Shown in pieces: positions 54,512 to 60,130 of a DNA stretch of 60,130 bases (positions within the stretch are counted from its first letter, which is position 1; each line of letters begins with the position of its first letter). The stretch spans positions 1-60,130 of the forward strand of contig PTKO01000002.1 of NCBI GenBank assembly GCA_002937775.1. Reading direction: 5' to 3'. Origin of the DNA: Alphaproteobacteria bacterium MarineAlpha6_Bin4. Lineage in GTDB: Bacteria; Pseudomonadota; Alphaproteobacteria; GCA-002720895. The notes below the pieces were generated by a model, which saw only the letters and a program-made list of their open reading frames with translations, was not told the origin of the DNA and searched no databases. A program made the translations under genes and the position numbers.

Positions 54512-55507
54512 TCAAGTTTGGCAGTTGTATATAGGAACATTTTTTATGTGTTTTCTTAATTTTTTATAAATAATATTTTCAAATTTTTTTTTCTTTACAT
54601 CACTATATGAATAAATTCCATTTTTATTTTCAAGATCTAATAAATTTATTCTTTTACCAGAATTTTCTTTTATAATTTTTTTAAACATTTTTTTTGGAAA
54701 TCTCATCATTCCAAAACTTATAGAATGTATGCTATCATTAGGAATATTTTTAGATATATCTAGAAATAATTTTTCGTAAATTTTTGCAAAATTACATGCT
54801 GGTATTATTGGATCAAATCTTAAACCTATTTTCCACCCTTTATTTGCTAGATTTTTCATAGCAATAATTCTTTTTTTTACACTTGGAACTTTATGCTCAA
54901 TTAATTTTGAAATATTCTCCGGTGTAAAACTAAAAGCAACTATACAATTGTCTATTGGCTTGTGTTTTAATATTTTTTGAATTTGGGTACTTTTAGTTCT
55001 TAATTCTAAAATAGCATTTTTATTCTTTTTAAAAATTGGAATAAAACAATCAACAAAGTTTGTTATTCCATCAAACGCAAGAGAGTCACAGTCATACCCA
55101 GAAAAAAAGTATGATTCTTGATGTCTATTTTGTTTTATTTTTTCTTCTATTTCTAAAAAAAAATCTTCATAATTTACAAATAAAAGATAATGTGATGACA
55201 TATGCTTTCCTTGTAAAAAACAATATTCACAATCATAAATACAATTAAGCATGTGTGAAAAATAGTAATTTTTTTTTCCTCCTATGCTAAATGATTTTGG
55301 TATATCGTGGAGTTTTCTTCCTTCTTTTTTTGCTAAAATTAAAGAAGGTTTTTTTTTTTGTATTCTGAAATTTTGAGATTTAATATTAAAAATTTCTCCA
55401 TAATGATCACAATAAATTACTTCAATTTTTTTTTTAAATTTAGATATAATTTGATTGGTTCTAGGATGATTTTTTATTTGGTTTTCAATATAAATTGTTT
55501 CTATCAT
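54512..55507 (-). CDS. Radical SAM protein of the spore-photoproduct-lyase (SPL/SplB, COG1533-like) family
   Basis: CIYDCEYCFLQG (CxxxCxxC). Its layout parallels my recollection of B. subtilis SplB: IYIE start, the cluster motif near residue 90, SFGMMRFPKKMFKKII and a terminal IYNCQT. Confidence 0.7.
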   Translation of the reverse strand: MIETIYIENQIKNHPRTNQIISKFKKKIEVIYCDHYGEIFNIKSQNFRIQKKKPSLILAKKEGRKLHDIPKSFSIGGKKNYYFSHMLNCIYDCEYCFLQGKHMSSHYLLFVNYEDFFLEIEEKIKQNRHQESYFFSGYDCDSLAFDGITNFVDCFIPIFKKNKNAILELRTKSTQIQKILKHKPIDNCIVAFSFTPENISKLIEHKVPSVKKRIIAMKNLANKGWKIGLRFDPIIPACNFAKIYEKLFLDISKNIPNDSIHSISFGMMRFPKKMFKKIIKENSGKRINLLDLENKNGIYSYSDVKKKKFENIIYKKLRKHIKNVPIYNCQT

Positions 55508-56869
55508 TTATAAAACTTTCGATAATTTATTTTTAATATCTTTTATTGGTTTTTCCCAATTACTTTTTTCTTCCTGCCTAAATATTTCTAAATTTTTATA
55601 CCATGGAGACATTCTCCCATAATTTGTCCAAGGCCAGTTTGGTACTTTTGGTTCCAGCATCCAAGTTTTTTTACCAATTGCACCTGACAAATGTACAATA
55701 GAAGTATCAGAAGAAATTATTAAATCAAGATTTTTAATAATAGCAGCTGTATCTATAAAAGCATCATCTCCAATATCAATAATATCATTATTGTCATTCA
55801 TATATTTATAAAATTTTGAATCTTTTATTTGTTCGTGTCCATTTCCCTTTTGTAAACTAATAAAATCTAAATTTTTAAATTCCAGCAATATTTCTAAATC
55901 TTTTAATTTAATTGCTCTAGATTTTGAGCCTGAAGAATCAACATTTCCTTGCCAAAATAAACCTATTTTAAAGCCTTTTTTTTCTTTTAGTTTATTTTTC
56001 CATTCTTCAACTAAATTTTTTTCAGGCTTAATATAATTAAAATTGGGAATATTTTTTAAATTGGTCTTAAACAAATAAGGTAGACTCATAATAGGTATAT
56101 AAAAATCATGATTTTCAATTGTATCTTCAAAATCATAAAATTTTTTTATGCCCCCCACAGAACTTAAAATTCTAAATAATTTTTTGTTACATTGTAAATT
56201 AACTTCTTCGCTATATTCCTCTAATAATTTTACGTATCTAACAAATTGTAAAACATCTCCAAAACCTTGTTCTGCTATAATTAGTATTTTTTTATTTTTT
56301 ATTTCATCTATTTTCTCTGGTTTTTTTTTATTTTCACTGAGAATTAATGGATAATCTGATGCTTTAAGTCTATATTCATAGTTTTTTAAACCCTCATCGT
56401 AATTTCCTTCTCTAAGCATTTCTATTCCTAAACTGTATCTAATGTCTGCCTCCATTTTATTATTTAAAATAGATTTATAATTATTTTTTAAAACTAAATC
56501 ATTAAAATTTTTAATAGCTTCTTTTGAATTTCCATTTGCAGAATGTGCAACTGCTAAATTAATTTTTGCAGGTATATTGTCTAGATCTAACTCTGTAGTT
56601 TTTTGAAAAAATTTAATAGCTTTTTCTAAATTATTTTTTTCTTTGAATGCATTTCCTAAATTATAGTATGAATGAATAAATTTTTTATCAATTTCAATAG
56701 ATTTTAAATAATTTTTAATTGCTTCATCATTTTTTTTTTGCCTTAAAAAAGAATTTCCTAAATTGTAATATAACGCAGCTAGTGAAAATTTAGAATCTTT
56801 GTCATTTGGATTTTTTTTTAGTAATTCTTCTAATTTTTTTTTTATTTCAAAAAATTTTTTTTTTTCCAT
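55508..56869 (-). CDS. TPR-repeat :: GT9-like (heptosyltransferase-fold) fusion protein
   Basis: About 150 aa of TPR repeats (LGNSFLRQKKNDEAIKNY, YNLGNAFKEKNNLEKAI). These are followed by IIAEQGFGDVLQFVRYV and DTSIVHLSGAIGKKTWML...SPWYKNLEIFRQ, typical of GT9-like domains. Confidence 0.65.
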   Translation of the reverse strand: MEKKKFFEIKKKLEELLKKNPNDKDSKFSLAALYYNLGNSFLRQKKNDEAIKNYLKSIEIDKKFIHSYYNLGNAFKEKNNLEKAIKFFQKTTELDLDNIPAKINLAVAHSANGNSKEAIKNFNDLVLKNNYKSILNNKMEADIRYSLGIEMLREGNYDEGLKNYEYRLKASDYPLILSENKKKPEKIDEIKNKKILIIAEQGFGDVLQFVRYVKLLEEYSEEVNLQCNKKLFRILSSVGGIKKFYDFEDTIENHDFYIPIMSLPYLFKTNLKNIPNFNYIKPEKNLVEEWKNKLKEKKGFKIGLFWQGNVDSSGSKSRAIKLKDLEILLEFKNLDFISLQKGNGHEQIKDSKFYKYMNDNNDIIDIGDDAFIDTAAIIKNLDLIISSDTSIVHLSGAIGKKTWMLEPKVPNWPWTNYGRMSPWYKNLEIFRQEEKSNWEKPIKDIKNKLSKVL

Positions 56870-56870
56870 T

Positions 56871-58550
56871 TTATTTGATAATCAACTTTTTGATTTCAGG
56901 TAAGTATAAGTATTCAACTTTGGAATTATCTAAAAGATTTAAAGCATCTTCTAAAGTTTCTACTAATGGTTCCCCAGCTAAATTTAATGAAGTGTTAAAA
57001 AGTATTGGAATTTTTGTTCTTACTTTAAAAGCTTTAATAAGATTATAGAAATTTTCATTTTGTTCTTTATTAATTGTTTGAATTCGGCATGTATTATCAA
57101 AATGTATAATAGCTGGAATTTTTTCTTTAATATTTGGTTTGCAATTTACAGCGTACATCATAAAAGGAGTTTGTTCCATTTTTCTTAAATCAAACCAATC
57201 ATTAACATCTTCTTCAAGAATTGTTCCTGCAAATGGTCTAAACCATTCTCTTTTTTTTACTTTATTAACTAGATCTTTTCCGTTTTTAACCCTTGGGTCA
57301 AATAAAAGCGATCTATTTCCCAAAGCTCTTGGACCTGCTTCTGATGATCCTTGAAAAATTGCAACAATATTTTTTTTTTCTATAATTTCAGAAATTTTTC
57401 TTTCGTCTGTATTTTCAACTTTTCTCCCTTTTAACAAATTTCCGTATTTTTCTGATTTATATGATGGTCCCAAATAAAGATTTTTTATAGGTTTTTTTTC
57501 AGTTTTTTTTGCTAACTGATACCATAATCTTTTTGCGGCACCTAATGATGTTCCGCCATCATGACTAATTGGTTCTATGTATAAATTTTTTTTATTATTT
57601 AAATGCTCTAAATATTTATAATTAGCTACACAATTTAATGCATACCCTCCTGATATAACTATATTTTTCTCACCTGTTAAATCAAAAGCTTTATCAATTA
57701 AAAAACACATTTGTTTTTCTGTTTCTTTTTGAACAGCATATGCAATATCTTGACGGTTTTTTTCTAACTCTTTTTTATCATTAGTTTCAAGCCATTTAAA
57801 TTTTTTTTTGTTTAAAATTGCACCATTAGGAAAATCTGGAATAAAAAAATCTTTGTTAGATAAATTTTCTTTATTAAAAAGTTGCGGAATTTTTTTGTTT
57901 TCTTTACCTAAAGCTGATAATCCCATTGTCTTACCTGCCTCTAAAACATGAAAATTACAATAATTTGTTGCTGCCTCATATGTTTTTGCTATTCCTGGGT
58001 GGTTTGTAAAAAATAATTCTTCTCCTTGTGGCCCCTTTTGTTTGGAATTTTCTCTATCCCATCCTTTTACACCTATATGTTTGTAAATTGGTAGAAAATT
58101 ATTAGGGTAAGATGCTTTAAATATACTTTCAAATTCATAGCCTGTTATACCTTCTCCCAACTGGATAAAAGTACCAGCGCCATCAACAATAAGTGCTGCT
58201 GCCGAATCAAAACCACTATTATAAAATGCTAAAGCTGCATGAAGTTCGTGATGCCTATCACCCATTTTAAAATATTGATCTTTATTTTTAATTAAACCAA
58301 TTTTTCTAGCAAACCCCATATATAAATCTTCTTGTGTCCAATCAAGCGGAGGTTCAAACGTATAGGTATGGGCAACAGCTATATAGTCAACTTTTTTGGT
58401 ATACTCTTTTAAAAATAAAAGTCCTTTAAAAGGTGCTCCATCATATTTAGAACGAGTTAAACGTTCTTCTTCAATATAAAATTCTACTTTACCATCATTT
58501 ATTAAACAAACACTTGCGTTGTGTCCTCTTGATATTCCAGCAATTTTCAT
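56871..58550 (-). CDS. NodU/CmcH-family carbamoyltransferase
   Basis: N-terminus MKIAGISRGHNASVCLINDGKVEFYIEEERLTRSKYDG and a 559-aa length, typical of O-carbamoyltransferases (NodU, NovN, TobZ family). Confidence 0.85.
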   Translation of the reverse strand: MKIAGISRGHNASVCLINDGKVEFYIEEERLTRSKYDGAPFKGLLFLKEYTKKVDYIAVAHTYTFEPPLDWTQEDLYMGFARKIGLIKNKDQYFKMGDRHHELHAALAFYNSGFDSAAALIVDGAGTFIQLGEGITGYEFESIFKASYPNNFLPIYKHIGVKGWDRENSKQKGPQGEELFFTNHPGIAKTYEAATNYCNFHVLEAGKTMGLSALGKENKKIPQLFNKENLSNKDFFIPDFPNGAILNKKKFKWLETNDKKELEKNRQDIAYAVQKETEKQMCFLIDKAFDLTGEKNIVISGGYALNCVANYKYLEHLNNKKNLYIEPISHDGGTSLGAAKRLWYQLAKKTEKKPIKNLYLGPSYKSEKYGNLLKGRKVENTDERKISEIIEKKNIVAIFQGSSEAGPRALGNRSLLFDPRVKNGKDLVNKVKKREWFRPFAGTILEEDVNDWFDLRKMEQTPFMMYAVNCKPNIKEKIPAIIHFDNTCRIQTINKEQNENFYNLIKAFKVRTKIPILFNTSLNLAGEPLVETLEDALNLLDNSKVEYLYLPEIKKLIIK

Positions 58551-59134
58551 ATTTTTAAAAATTCATTAATCAGTTTATCTATAATATTAGCATTAGTATG
58601 AATCCAATTTTCAATTTTTTTTGATGAAATATTTAAAATAGAGCTTTTTTTGTTATCTGATATTATTTTTATACATTGTACCTTTTCTGGGCCTGCATAT
58701 ACCCGAGCTCCTTTAAAAAAACCTGATGCCTCCATATCATAAAGGGAATCTGTTGTATATTTTATTTTTGGAAATCCTACTGTTATTAGAGAATTTTTTT
58801 TTATTTTTGTCTTCCAAAGTAAAGATGGATACCAACTATATTTGGTTTTGTTATCGATAACTTTTGAAACTAATATAATTTCACCTAACTTATAATCCTT
58901 ATGTCCTGCAATTCCAATATTTAAAAAAAAAGAATTTTTATCGGTTTCTTCAGCTAAGTATATTGTGGCTTTCTCCGCACTTTTTTTTCCTATTCCAGAT
59001 ATTATTAAATTAATTTTTTTTTCTTTGTTAGAAAAAAAATTTCTCGAATTTTTTTTTAACTCCCATTGATTTATAAGTGGCATTGCTTCCCTCTTCATAG
59101 CAACAACAATATTTATTTGATTTTTTTTACTCAT
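58547..59134 (-). CDS. PNP_UDP-superfamily nucleosidase/phosphorylase-like protein (MTAN/HpnG/MqnB-like)
   Basis: 195 aa. IVVAMKREA start, ISGIGKKSA and LYDMEASG segments resemble MTA/SAH-nucleosidase-type enzymes. Confidence 0.55.
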   Translation of the reverse strand: MSKKNQINIVVAMKREAMPLINQWELKKNSRNFFSNKEKKINLIISGIGKKSAEKATIYLAEETDKNSFFLNIGIAGHKDYKLGEIILVSKVIDNKTKYSWYPSLLWKTKIKKNSLITVGFPKIKYTTDSLYDMEASGFFKGARVYAGPEKVQCIKIISDNKKSSILNISSKKIENWIHTNANIIDKLINEFLKI

Positions 59135-59948
59135 AATTTTTTATTTTATTTTCATAATAAATAATTTCTTTTTTCTTTTTTCTTTTTTTTAGTCCTTTTA
59201 AATATATATTAATTTTTTTTCTAATAGTTTTTTTAGCTAAGTTTTTATTTTTTTCTGTTAAAGTTTTTTCTTTAATTATATTTTCCAAAGCCACTATTCT
59301 AAAACGATCCATTCCCCAATATTTTTTTGATAGCTGGTTGAAATGACCCCCATGTTTTATAGTAAGTTTTTCGTTTAAATATAAAACTGGAAATTTGGCT
59401 GTTATTCTTAACCAAAGATCATAATCCTCACAAACAGGGAGTTTTTCATTAAAAAAACCTAATTTTTTAAAAATATCTTTATGTATTATGACGCTTGAAG
59501 GTGATATACGACAAATATCAAGAGATTTATTGAAAATCGAGCCCCCATATTTTTCATGTTTTTTATGTTGATTAACCCTAACACCTTTTCTTATCCAAAT
59601 TTCATCGGTATGGCAAATTTTGTATTTTTTTTTTTTAGTTAAATAATTTATTTGTTTTTCCAATTTTTCAGGATGCCATTTATCATCAGAGTCCAAGAAT
59701 GCTATCCAATTGTTTAAAGATAATTTAATTCCTCTATTCCTTGCAGCGCTAACCCCTTTATTCAATTGTTTGTATACTCTTACTTTAGGATATTTTTTTT
59801 TTACATATTCTGCAGTTTTATCACTTGATCCATCGTCAATAATGATTAATTCTAAATTTTGATAGGTTTGATTTAATACACTGTTTATAGCATTTATTAA
59901 AAAAAATTTTCTGTTATAGGTTGGTATTATTACAGATACATTAAACAT
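59127..59948 (-). CDS. Family 2 glycosyltransferase
   Basis: VSVIIPTYNR, IIIDDGSSD and FLDSDD (DxD) motifs. Confidence 0.85.
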   Translation of the reverse strand: MFNVSVIIPTYNRKFFLINAINSVLNQTYQNLELIIIDDGSSDKTAEYVKKKYPKVRVYKQLNKGVSAARNRGIKLSLNNWIAFLDSDDKWHPEKLEKQINYLTKKKKYKICHTDEIWIRKGVRVNQHKKHEKYGGSIFNKSLDICRISPSSVIIHKDIFKKLGFFNEKLPVCEDYDLWLRITAKFPVLYLNEKLTIKHGGHFNQLSKKYWGMDRFRIVALENIIKEKTLTEKNKNLAKKTIRKKINIYLKGLKKRKKKKEIIYYENKIKNYE

Positions 59949-59959
59949 ATTTTAATATT

Positions 59960-60130
59960 ATGAACAAATTTAAATTATCACATTTTTTTTTATTTTTATT
60001 TTTTTCATTTATAAATATTGATTTTATAAATGCTGGATATGGGAGCAAAGAAATAGGTACAGAAAAAGAAAAGAAAGGTTTTAAAGAAATAGATTTAAAT
60101 AATGATGGAAAAATTGATTATTATGAATTT
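59960..60130 (+). CDS. Secreted EF-hand protein, N-terminal fragment (runs off the right edge)
   Basis: Not in the ORF track. The ATG at 59960 gives MNKFKLSHFFLFLFFSFINIDFINAGYGSKEIGTEKEKKGFKEIDLNNDGKIDYYEF. This is a signal-peptide-like start plus a canonical DxNxDGxIDxxE calcium loop. Confidence 0.5.
   Translation, partial: MNKFKLSHFFLFLFFSFINIDFINAGYGSKEIGTEKEKKGFKEIDLNNDGKIDYYEF

Follow-up and report, generated by a model that had tools for sequence, protein, structure and literature searches.

The spore photoproduct lyase (SPL) fold has, to our knowledge, so far been tied to one reaction, the repair of the spore photoproduct in DNA, in which Cys140 and Tyr98 (G. thermodenitrificans numbering) form the hydrogen-atom relay of the enzyme. 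In the arsenosugar pathway, which involves ArsS and a TIGR04283 protein resembling family 2 glycosyltransferases (GT2), a radical S-adenosylmethionine (SAM) enzyme transfers a 5′-deoxyadenosyl group, adenine is lost and a GT2-like step follows. A series in which a radical SAM (rSAM) enzyme is followed by a nucleosidase of the purine nucleoside phosphorylase (PNP) type and then by a GT2 has been documented for HpnH/HpnG/HpnI (PMC13459092). Here, we analysed a 60,130-nt stretch of contig PTKO01000002.1 from Alphaproteobacteria bacterium MarineAlpha6_Bin4 (the whole stretch being referred to below as the window), in which five genes lie head to tail at 54512–59948 on the minus strand. They encode a GT2, a nucleosidase resembling PNP and methylthioadenosine/S-adenosylhomocysteine nucleosidase (MTAN), an O-carbamoyltransferase, a protein that joins tetratricopeptide repeats (TPR) to a GT9-like glycosyltransferase domain (TPR::GT), and an rSAM enzyme of the SPL fold. 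The comparison of this locus with its relatives revealed that the GT2, nucleosidase and rSAM genes are a conserved module that recurs in at least eight phyla and, in all lineages sampled outside the MarineAlpha6 clade, lacks the other two genes, and that the operon is very probably a composite of this core module and an inserted two-gene cassette.

Results

A core module of glycosyltransferase, nucleosidase and radical SAM genes

The core module comprises the GT2 (GT-A) gene (59127–59948; 273 aa), which is the first of the operon, the nucleosidase gene (58547–59134; PNP_UDP_1 superfamily, 195 aa, a short form) and the SPL-fold rSAM gene (54512–55507; 331 aa), which closes the operon and anchors the conserved module. 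The O-carbamoyltransferase gene (56871–58550; NodU/NolO/TobZ superfamily, 559 aa) and the TPR::GT gene (55508–56869; 453 aa) make up the cassette (55508–58550), which is set precisely between the stop of the nucleosidase gene and the start of the rSAM gene. All five open reading frames (ORFs) lie on the minus strand, at the coordinates given in a first-pass annotation of this DNA, and the gene identities proposed there were upheld by Pfam and NCBIfam profile scans.

SPL-like homologues were traced to their contigs and the neighbouring genes were then compared. A scan of a one-genome-per-species collection yielded at least 571 loci encoding an SPL-like relative; 83 non-redundant loci were compared, 60 of them with enough flanking sequence for configurations to be counted. 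The 83 loci span Gammaproteobacteria and Alphaproteobacteria, Opitutales, Acidobacteriota, Myxococcota, Pirellulaceae, Omnitrophica and Latescibacterota. All loci retrieved come from metagenome or single-cell assemblies. Of the 83, 73 have a nucleosidase gene and 51 have a GT2 gene, whereas a homologue of the carbamoyltransferase or of TPR::GT was found in none of the 83 loci from other lineages. The most frequent configuration was GT2, nucleosidase and SPL (29/60 loci), followed by the same three genes with a short-chain dehydrogenase/reductase (SDR) gene (10/60), by nucleosidase, SPL and SDR (9/60) and by SPL and SDR (6/60), with other configurations in the remaining 6/60. Counted by gene, GT2, nucleosidase and SPL occurred together in 39/60 loci, the nucleosidase adjoined SPL in 51/60, a GT2 orthologue lay directly upstream of the nucleosidase in 40/60, and an SDR gene lay downstream in 25/60; beyond GT2, nucleosidase and SDR, no other conserved neighbour was found across the sampled loci. 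The four-gene form with the downstream SDR, at about 50% identity, is exemplified by locus L004, on a 2.1-Mb contig, and by one Myxococcota metagenome-assembled genome (MAG). Within the MarineAlpha6 group, a MarineAlpha6_Bin5 relative (SPL-like protein 76% identical) has the same secB/fxsA/Tim44/hslUV/his flank as the window and an operon that consists only of the GT2, nucleosidase and SPL-like genes. Synteny thus held widely for GT2, nucleosidase and rSAM, whereas that of the carbamoyltransferase and TPR::GT genes was specific to the clade.

In 62 of 75 loci, the stop of the nucleosidase gene overlaps the start of the rSAM gene or is no more than 10 nt away from it. An exhaustive profile search gave 710 SPL-like clusters (50% identity) at E ≤ 1e-30, and 22 of the 150 best 50%-identity cluster representatives were in-frame nucleosidase::SPL fusion proteins. 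Two contigs with the same fusion protein (P0437) have an SDR gene 8 nt downstream. At one fusion locus (L183, 5127–8513), a gene for a 491-aa GT4/sucrose-synthase-like GT-B enzyme stands upstream in the place of GT2, which looks like a non-orthologous replacement of the glycosyltransferase partner. The overlap, proximity and fusion of the two genes mark the nucleosidase/rSAM pair as the invariant core and the glycosyltransferase and reductase as its recurrent partners. The earlier suggestion that the nucleosidase and rSAM members point to chemistry on a nucleoside or SAM-derived moiety is strengthened by this translational coupling across phyla and by the occurrence of fusions in many lineages. 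No relative of the SPL-like subfamily was found in IMG/VR, and the core module is not phage-borne.

The first-pass annotation had been unable to map the gene combination to a pathway, and our searches agree with it: no published description of the module was found in a literature search, and no NCBIfam equivalog cutoff was reached by any of the five proteins or by the long-form partners. Membership of hopanoid, futalosine, arsenosugar, mycofactocin and lipopolysaccharide (LPS) pathways was considered and rejected. A role in anti-phage defence was likewise set aside, there being no PADLOC match for the five proteins or for the long-form nucleosidase and SDR.

Some neighbours are confined to single lineages. 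A gene for a DSP-PTPase-like phosphatase lies between GT2 and the nucleosidase in 11 loci of one lineage (e.g., L061, 6729–7193), an adenine phosphoribosyltransferase gene lies about 4 kb upstream of the module in 12 loci of a single lineage (e.g., L025, 4035–4550), and an adenosine-deaminase-family gene follows the SDR gene in the single lineage of L004 (11689–13218). These neighbours fit adenine or phospho-sugar handling. In the Myxococcota locus L006 (1072–2923), a methionine-salvage trio is found about 5 kb upstream of the module, its products being a class II aldolase (MtnB-like), ARD and a hydrolase of the enolase-phosphatase kind; it may be relevant to the fate of a (deoxy)ribosyl product, again in a single lineage.

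Sequence and fold of the MTAN-like nucleosidase and the SPL-like enzyme

The nucleosidase matches Pfam PNP_UDP_1 (1.2e-07). Its invariant motifs (alignment A2) are A..E16, SGxGK, NxGxAG, D-M134-E135 (DME; Met134 codon at 58733–58735, minus strand) and KxxSD (S159-D160). Of these, E16, M134-E135 and S159-D160 align to the MTAN motifs AMPEE, VEME (its M-E) and SDN, respectively, and we take the MTAN catalytic residues to be Glu12, Met173/Glu174 and Ser196/Asp197 in E. coli numbering. As judged from this alignment, the nucleosidase keeps every MTAN catalytic motif. Curated equivalogs were not reached (PRK05584, 23.5 bits against a cutoff of 169; the futalosine hydrolase TIGR03664, 21.2 against 124.7), and the HpnG equivalog gave no match at E ≤ 0.01. 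In most other lineages the protein carries a C-terminal extension of about 80 aa ('RWHFT..Q..QL..LL.R'; A2 columns ~282–369) that has no Pfam match. Neither this extension nor the adjacent SDR gene survives in the clade of the window, both having been lost there, whereas the outgroup alphaproteobacterium L073 keeps the two; a module-specific hidden Markov model (HMM) found no SDR elsewhere in the 60-kb window. The third core protein, GT2, matches Pfam Glycos_transf_2 (1.1e-34) and reached no NCBIfam equivalog cutoff, its best being TuaG (107.7 bits against 400); it matches TIGR04283 at 2.6e-19 (69.7 bits against a cutoff of 182), and its ratio of nonsynonymous to synonymous substitution rates (dN/dS) is 0.13–0.15.

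The SPL-like protein matches Pfam PF20903 (SPL) at 6.3e-21 (75 bits against a cutoff of 27), and Foldseek superposed its AF2 model (pLDDT 82.8) over the full length on SPL (4fhe, 4fhc and related structures; TM 0.85, 17% identity). The rSAM cluster motif C89-x3-C93-x2-C96 (CIYDCEYC), read at 55220–55243 on the minus strand, is followed by an invariant F97. The C89, C93 and C96 columns are invariant in alignment A1 and align to C90/C94/C97 of SPL, and the Tyr before the third Cys is kept. The SPL equivalog cutoffs, however, were missed (TIGR04070, 94.3 bits against 400; TIGR03886, 62.4 against 437.55). In the HMM alignment to wild-type 4fhc, an invariant Tyr138 stands at the Cys140 position and an invariant Phe97 at the Tyr98 position, and the Y98F mutant 4k9r outscores wild-type SPL. 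A 7-residue gap lies opposite the W302–G308 hairpin of SPL, which bears the R304/Y305 DNA wedge, in what is a sequence alignment and not a structural superposition, and the median isoelectric point (pI) of the catalytic-core fragment is 5.8 as against 9.0 for SPL. The loss of Cys140, Tyr98 and the DNA-wedge hairpin, taken together with the equivalog scores below cutoff and the acidic core, suggests that the protein is an SPL-fold enzyme but probably not a spore-photoproduct (DNA-repair) lyase. In their source records the homologues are named 'spore photoproduct lyase' or 'DNA photolyase', and the names of the cluster members state nothing beyond 'spore photoproduct lyase'.

A cassette of a phage-type carbamoyltransferase gene and a TPR::GT gene

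The carbamoyltransferase has a Kae1-like N-terminal and a YrdC-like C-terminal domain, both above the Pfam thresholds (Carbam_trans_N, 2.7e-23, 83.4 bits against 24; Carbam_trans_C, 1.6e-58, 197.4 bits against 27), and its matches in PDB include 7xb6, TobZ and GdmN; against the NodU equivalog it scored 140 bits, the cutoff being 1000. The family closest to it is phrog_1601, 'Nol-like carbamoyltransferase' (1.6e-169 over the full length), and it is 50–56% identical to cyanomyovirus auxiliary-gene copies (50% to those of S-CAM3, S-CAM1 and P-SSM2 in tblastn against phage genomes). By sequence similarity, its nearest relatives outside the clade are cyanophage auxiliary genes. GT2, nucleosidase or SPL genes were neighbours of related carbamoyltransferases in 0/80 loci (L101–L180). 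In phages, the carbamoyltransferase gene follows directly on a conserved, unannotated gene of about 319 aa in 72–78 of 80 loci, and the product of this upstream gene carries a GT9-like D(S/T)xxxH motif. Its identification as a proven GT9 was rejected, given a marginal similarity to the GT domain of TPR::GT in hhalign (probability 33%, E 4.6e-4) and no Pfam or PDB sequence match. In Synechococcus phage S-CAM3 (NC_031906.1, 106826–116493), the pair is followed by genes for ADP-heptose synthase, phosphoheptose isomerase and a sugar epimerase, by the tail-fibre genes; from this arrangement, phages may encode a module for carbamoyl-heptose glycosylation, with virion proteins as a possible target.

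The TPR::GT protein has TPRs at residues ~1–170 and a compact GT-B, GT9-like domain at ~187–453, and its AF2 model (pLDDT 90.8) contains a TPR superhelix and a compact GT-B domain. Besides TPR Pfam matches, the window protein matches Glyco_transf_9 (PF01075) at 17.1 bits, below the cutoff of 22; 25 of 28 members of the TPR::GT family match PF01075 at E ≤ 0.01 (best 6.2e-07), and the conserved GT9 motif D-T-S-x-x-H-L-x-G-A is present. The top Foldseek matches were SPINDLY and OGT (E 4e-10 to 1e-8, TM 0.27–0.32), with much of the signal coming from the TPR repeats.

Within the clade, five loci (L001 and L008–L011) lack the cassette and have the rSAM gene immediately after the nucleosidase gene, while others (L088–L094, L095 and L098–L100) carry the cassette, each at the same junctions. 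An identical five-gene locus occurs in GCA_002937795.1, and the exact five-gene form recurs in many assemblies. It is also present in more divergent relatives, in which the identity of the cassette proteins falls to 70–85% (TPR::GT 70%) and that of the SPL-like protein to 68%, and at L100 the block of five is intact although its downstream flank is a different one. The insert splits the ancestral three-gene junction ...GAATTTTTAAAAGTTTAATGATAGAAACA; in every five-gene locus it is bounded on the left by the ATGA junction and on the right by that at the SPL start codon, and in all of them start/stop coupling is kept at both cassette junctions. In a neighbour-joining tree of the nucleosidase and SPL sequences, three- and five-gene loci were intermixed, the inner clade having 100% bootstrap support and a five-gene locus being basal. 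Across the five genes dN/dS is 0.09–0.21, and the synonymous divergence (dS) of the cassette equals that of the flanking genes. Both cassette genes are under purifying selection. We read the cassette as an old insertion, not a recent arrival, that in some lineages was later cleanly lost or was exchanged by recombination. One coherent five-gene pathway is not upheld by these data, since the core is found without the cassette outside the clade and the cassette is present or absent at a single site.

Junctions, composition and flanks of the operon

The GT2 and nucleosidase genes overlap by 8 nt (ATGAGTAA, 59127–59134), the nucleosidase and carbamoyltransferase genes share an ATGA overlap (58547–58550), the carbamoyltransferase and TPR::GT genes are joined by TAA-A-ATG with a 1-nt spacer at 56870, and the TPR::GT and rSAM genes meet in TAAATG (55505–55510). 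The four junctions are as first described. They had been held to strongly imply one transcript and coupled translation, and here the layout stands, while the junctions by themselves are weak evidence of linkage and do not go beyond genome compaction: the window is 97% coding with 26% GC and a median same-strand intergenic gap of 3.5 nt, the gap is ≤1 nt at 21 of its 48 same-strand junctions (44%), and further runs of three to four junctions with a gap of ≤1 nt exist elsewhere in it. Start/stop overlaps are the rule in this genome and not a sign of special operons. Because the tight junctions do not exceed this compaction, the evidence for linkage comes from the synteny seen elsewhere. In the mechanical ORF list, TTG or GTG serves as the start codon of many window genes.

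In consensus scans, which are uninformative in such AT-rich DNA, promoter-like sites were not enriched (34 against 38.9 ± 7.6 expected) and no minus-strand terminator-like site was found between the five genes. An Rfam scan of the window gave no match, and in eight diverse module loci it found rRNA and tRNA genes only, with nothing riboswitch-like upstream of the module, which as far as Rfam can tell is not riboswitch-controlled. The Pfam and NCBIfam scans reported no signal peptide or transmembrane domain for the five proteins, no dedicated predictor having been run. The GC content at third codon positions (GC3) of the five genes is 0.12–0.17, and their overall GC content is 22–29% against 26% for the window; a foreign composition of the cassette was rejected, its GC3 being like that of its neighbours.

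Upstream of the operon, and divergent from it, lies an EF-hand ORF with a signal-peptide-like N-terminus (59960–60130, plus strand, cut by the window end), in keeping with the secreted EF-hand gene noted at this place before. In relative L088 (5195–5548, minus strand) the ORF is complete and encodes 117 aa with three EF-hand loops, e.g., DLNNDGKIDYYEF, and it is kept at the same position in relatives L095 and L099. No more than 11 nt separate its start from the start codon of GT2 at 59948, so that the promoter of each unit must lie inside the coding sequence of the other. Beyond the EF-hand ORF follow queD/queE/queC, msrB, an M48 peptidase gene and cysS, and the other flank consists of secB, fxsA, a Tim44-like gene, hslUV and his genes; both flanks are syntenic in relatives. 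No LPS/O-antigen genes flank the operon, with no wzx, wzy, waa or sugar-nucleotide genes being present, and no heptose-synthesis homologues were found within the window.

Discussion

The explanation that we favour, and consider rather better than an even bet as a whole, is a composite operon whose core encodes an rSAM/nucleosidase/glycosyltransferase route. In such a route, the rSAM enzyme would cleave SAM and leave a 5′-deoxyadenosyl-containing species, the nucleosidase would take adenine off this species, the SDR, where present, would reduce the resulting (deoxy)ribosyl moiety, and the glycosyltransferase would then glycosylate this moiety. The core module is probably cytosolic. Quite likely, the substrate of the nucleosidase is the adenosyl-bearing product or co-product that the rSAM reaction yields. 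For the first step an adenosylated product is favoured by analogy with HpnH/HpnG/HpnI and MqnE/MqnB, so that a C-adenosylation route specifically is our tentative preference, to which we would give somewhat less than an even chance. The cassette would add an ADP-heptose-type sugar to a protein or glycan recognised by the TPR domain and carbamoylate it; transfer and O-carbamoylation of such a sugar are probably its function. Taken to its full extent, the proposal would be that the coupled or fused nucleosidase and SPL-fold rSAM enzyme represent an unrecognised pathway of many phyla, in which the 5′-deoxyadenosyl group of SAM is installed or harvested, deadenylated, reduced and glycosylated and, in this clade, the product or its carrier is further modified by a phage-related cassette. 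In that complete form it is speculative, and we think it unlikely that every part of it is right. The general idea of nucleoside or SAM-derived chemistry together with glycan tailoring, put forward in the first-pass annotation, is a reasonable one, whereas the picture of a single five-gene pathway at the edge of a surface-glycan island is not.

Several points weigh against the explanation that we favour. The chemistry is inferred, and the characterised SPL abstracts a hydrogen atom and does not add 5′-deoxyadenosine (5′-dA) to its substrate. No specific similarity links the rSAM enzyme to HpnH, and the match of the enzyme to MqnE is that of a generic rSAM core (TM ~0.47). GT2 is not beside the pair in about a third of the loci, and the SDR is not in more than half; the lineage of the window itself has no SDR in 60 kb and no nucleosidase C-terminal extension. 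The GT9 assignment is weak, given that the window protein is below the Pfam threshold and its TM to OGT/SPINDLY is about 0.3. A fused or coupled nucleosidase fits the removal of inhibitory 5′-dA equally well. Finally, the cassette is dispensable in sister lineages and may for that reason be a passenger.

In this last alternative, to which we give an appreciable chance, if a minority one, the cassette would be functionally unrelated to the core, having landed in a permissive site of a compact genome from which it is co-transcribed. Its absence from sister lineages with an otherwise identical locus, the 0/80 loci in which related carbamoyltransferases have GT2, nucleosidase or SPL genes nearby, and the normality of tight junctions in this genome all speak for it. 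Set against these are the retention of the cassette between nucleosidase and rSAM, the most tightly coupled pair of the module, despite the divergence of the loci, its strong purifying selection with a dS equal to that of the flanks, the start/stop coupling at both junctions in all five-gene loci, and the persistence of the five genes together at L100, where the downstream flank differs. Functional integration of the cassette with the core is, in our estimate, less likely than not.

The main rival for the core is that the SPL-like enzyme abstracts a hydrogen from a sugar, nucleotide-sugar or other small molecule, that the SDR and the glycosyltransferase process the product, and that the nucleosidase merely destroys the inhibitory 5′-dA. 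MTANs hydrolyse 5′-dA, the MTAN catalytic residues are conserved in the nucleosidase, and hydrogen abstraction rather than adenosylation is what SPL-type enzymes do. The lost Cys140/Tyr98 relay suggests stoichiometric use of SAM, which would yield 5′-dA, and a fusion would put the scavenger at its source. Nevertheless, dedicated coupled or fused MTAN partners are not known to be general among rSAM enzymes, the nucleosidase forms a distinct clade with a C-terminal extension of its own and is not the housekeeping Pfs (23.5 bits against 169), and where such coupling is known, with HpnG and MqnB, the nucleosidase serves a pathway. Mere by-product removal is thus rather unlikely in our estimate, the proposed route of adenine removal and glycosylation being preferred.

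A place for the core module in GTP-derived pterin or 7-deazapurine metabolism, for example in making a glycosylated pterin or a modified deazapurine, is improbable. Sepiapterin reductase is an SDR and pterin glycosyltransferases exist; a gammaproteobacterial MAG (L062, 6784–9712) has a tight co-directional run of PTPS (QueD-like), FolE2 GTP cyclohydrolase, SPL-like and SDR genes, with no nucleosidase or GT2 gene adjoining SPL; and queC/queE/queD lie immediately upstream of the operon in the MarineAlpha6 clade (L001, L009, L011 and L088). However, these are two independent lineages of more than 60, roughly the chance level, no such neighbours were present in the other loci, and the nucleosidase carries adenine-type MTAN residues.

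The model of the first-pass annotation, in which the block belongs to an island for LPS-core, O-antigen or hypervariable surface-glycan synthesis or marks its edge, could draw on the two glycosyltransferases and the O-carbamoyltransferase of the block, on a GT9-like domain typical of LPS-core heptosyltransferases and on the variable presence of the cassette. It is improbable in view of the housekeeping flanks that are syntenic in relatives, the absence of wzx, wzy, waa and sugar-nucleotide genes beside the operon and of heptose-synthesis genes in the window, the lack of any signal peptide or transmembrane domain in the profile scans reported above, and a GC3 without foreign composition. Least probable of all is that the last gene encodes a genuine spore-photoproduct-type DNA-repair lyase with the other genes as incidental neighbours, since the Pfam match, the names of the homologues and the full-length fold match (TM 0.85) are countered by equivalog scores below the cutoffs (94 against 400 bits and 62 against 437), 17% identity to SPL, the changes Cys140 to Tyr and Tyr98 to Phe, deletion of the W302–G308 hairpin and a core pI of 5.8 against 9.0, and coupling or fusion to a nucleosidase and association with glycosyltransferase and SDR genes serve no role in spore photoproduct repair.

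The module of nucleosidase and SPL-fold rSAM enzyme is a more interesting object than the five-gene block, and it is not visible from one window alone. The partnership of an rSAM enzyme with an adenine-nucleoside hydrolase, often in one polypeptide, offers a testable handle on a new radical SAM reaction, which may yield a SAM-derived glyco-metabolite made by abundant aquatic bacteria. The locus is also a case of operon evolution in a streamlined genome: the two genes of the cassette were placed with single-nucleotide precision between translationally coupled genes and then cleanly kept or lost among close relatives. Through the cassette, moreover, a gene pair of cellular genomes is linked with an auxiliary gene of cyanomyoviruses that has long been unexplained, the carbamoyltransferase gene, which travels with a putative heptosyl-type transferase and sometimes with ADP-heptose synthesis genes.

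Among known systems, the 'Nol-like carbamoyltransferase' of cyanomyoviruses is 50–56% identical to the protein of the cassette and is also paired with a gene bearing the GT9-like D(S/T)xxxH motif. This partner gene, however, has no TPR domain, lies upstream and not downstream, and shows marginal similarity to TPR::GT, and the S-CAM3 pair adjoins ADP-heptose synthesis genes whereas the window has no heptose-synthesis genes. TPR::GT shares an N-terminal TPR superhelix and a C-terminal GT-B domain with OGT/SPINDLY (GT41), but its TM to them is only 0.27–0.32 and its catalytic domain is much smaller than that of GT41; with GT9 heptosyltransferases it shares D-T-S-x-x-H-L-x-G-A, although the window protein is below the PF01075 gathering score.

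For the core, the arsenosugar pathway offers a likeness in the GT2 match to TIGR04283, with a score of 69.7 bits against the cutoff of 182 and an rSAM enzyme of a different family; arsM was not among the conserved neighbour clusters, no search having been aimed at it. In the futalosine pathway, rSAM adenosylation by MqnE is followed by an MTAN-family hydrolase, MqnB, as in the series proposed for the module. The match of the nucleosidases to TIGR03664 is weak, however (21–25 bits, far below the cutoff of 124.7), MqnE is among the distant structural matches of the SPL-like enzyme through a generic rSAM core, no other mqn genes are nearby, and the glycosyltransferase and SDR of the module have no counterpart in that pathway. 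The Hpn enzymes of hopanoid synthesis are alike in that an rSAM enzyme uses SAM, an enzyme of the PNP/MTAN superfamily removes adenine and a GT2 glycosylates (PMC13459092). Their pathway also needs a reduction of the ribosyl moiety, which in the module the SDR could serve. Unlike HpnH, the rSAM enzyme of the module has the SPL fold; HpnG and HpnI were not among the NCBIfam matches listed (for GT2, the best 25 of 29 families), no hopanoid genes were found in the Pfam-annotated flanks, and the module occurs in lineages not known for hopanoids.

SplB (4fhc and related structures) is the system whose fold is shared. The SPL-like enzyme keeps its full-length fold (TM 0.85), the CxxxCxxC motif, the Tyr before the third Cys and the PF20903 match, and differs from it in its 17% identity, in Tyr and Phe at the Cys140 and Tyr98 positions, in the deleted R304/Y305 hairpin, in its acidic core and in its nucleosidase partner. 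The enzyme superfamilies are known and the rSAM/nucleosidase/glycosyltransferase logic has precedent. If our proposal is true, the module would be a further independent version of the logic of radical adenosylation, deadenylation and glycosylation known from hopanoids, futalosine and arsenosugars, built on the scaffold of a DNA-repair enzyme.

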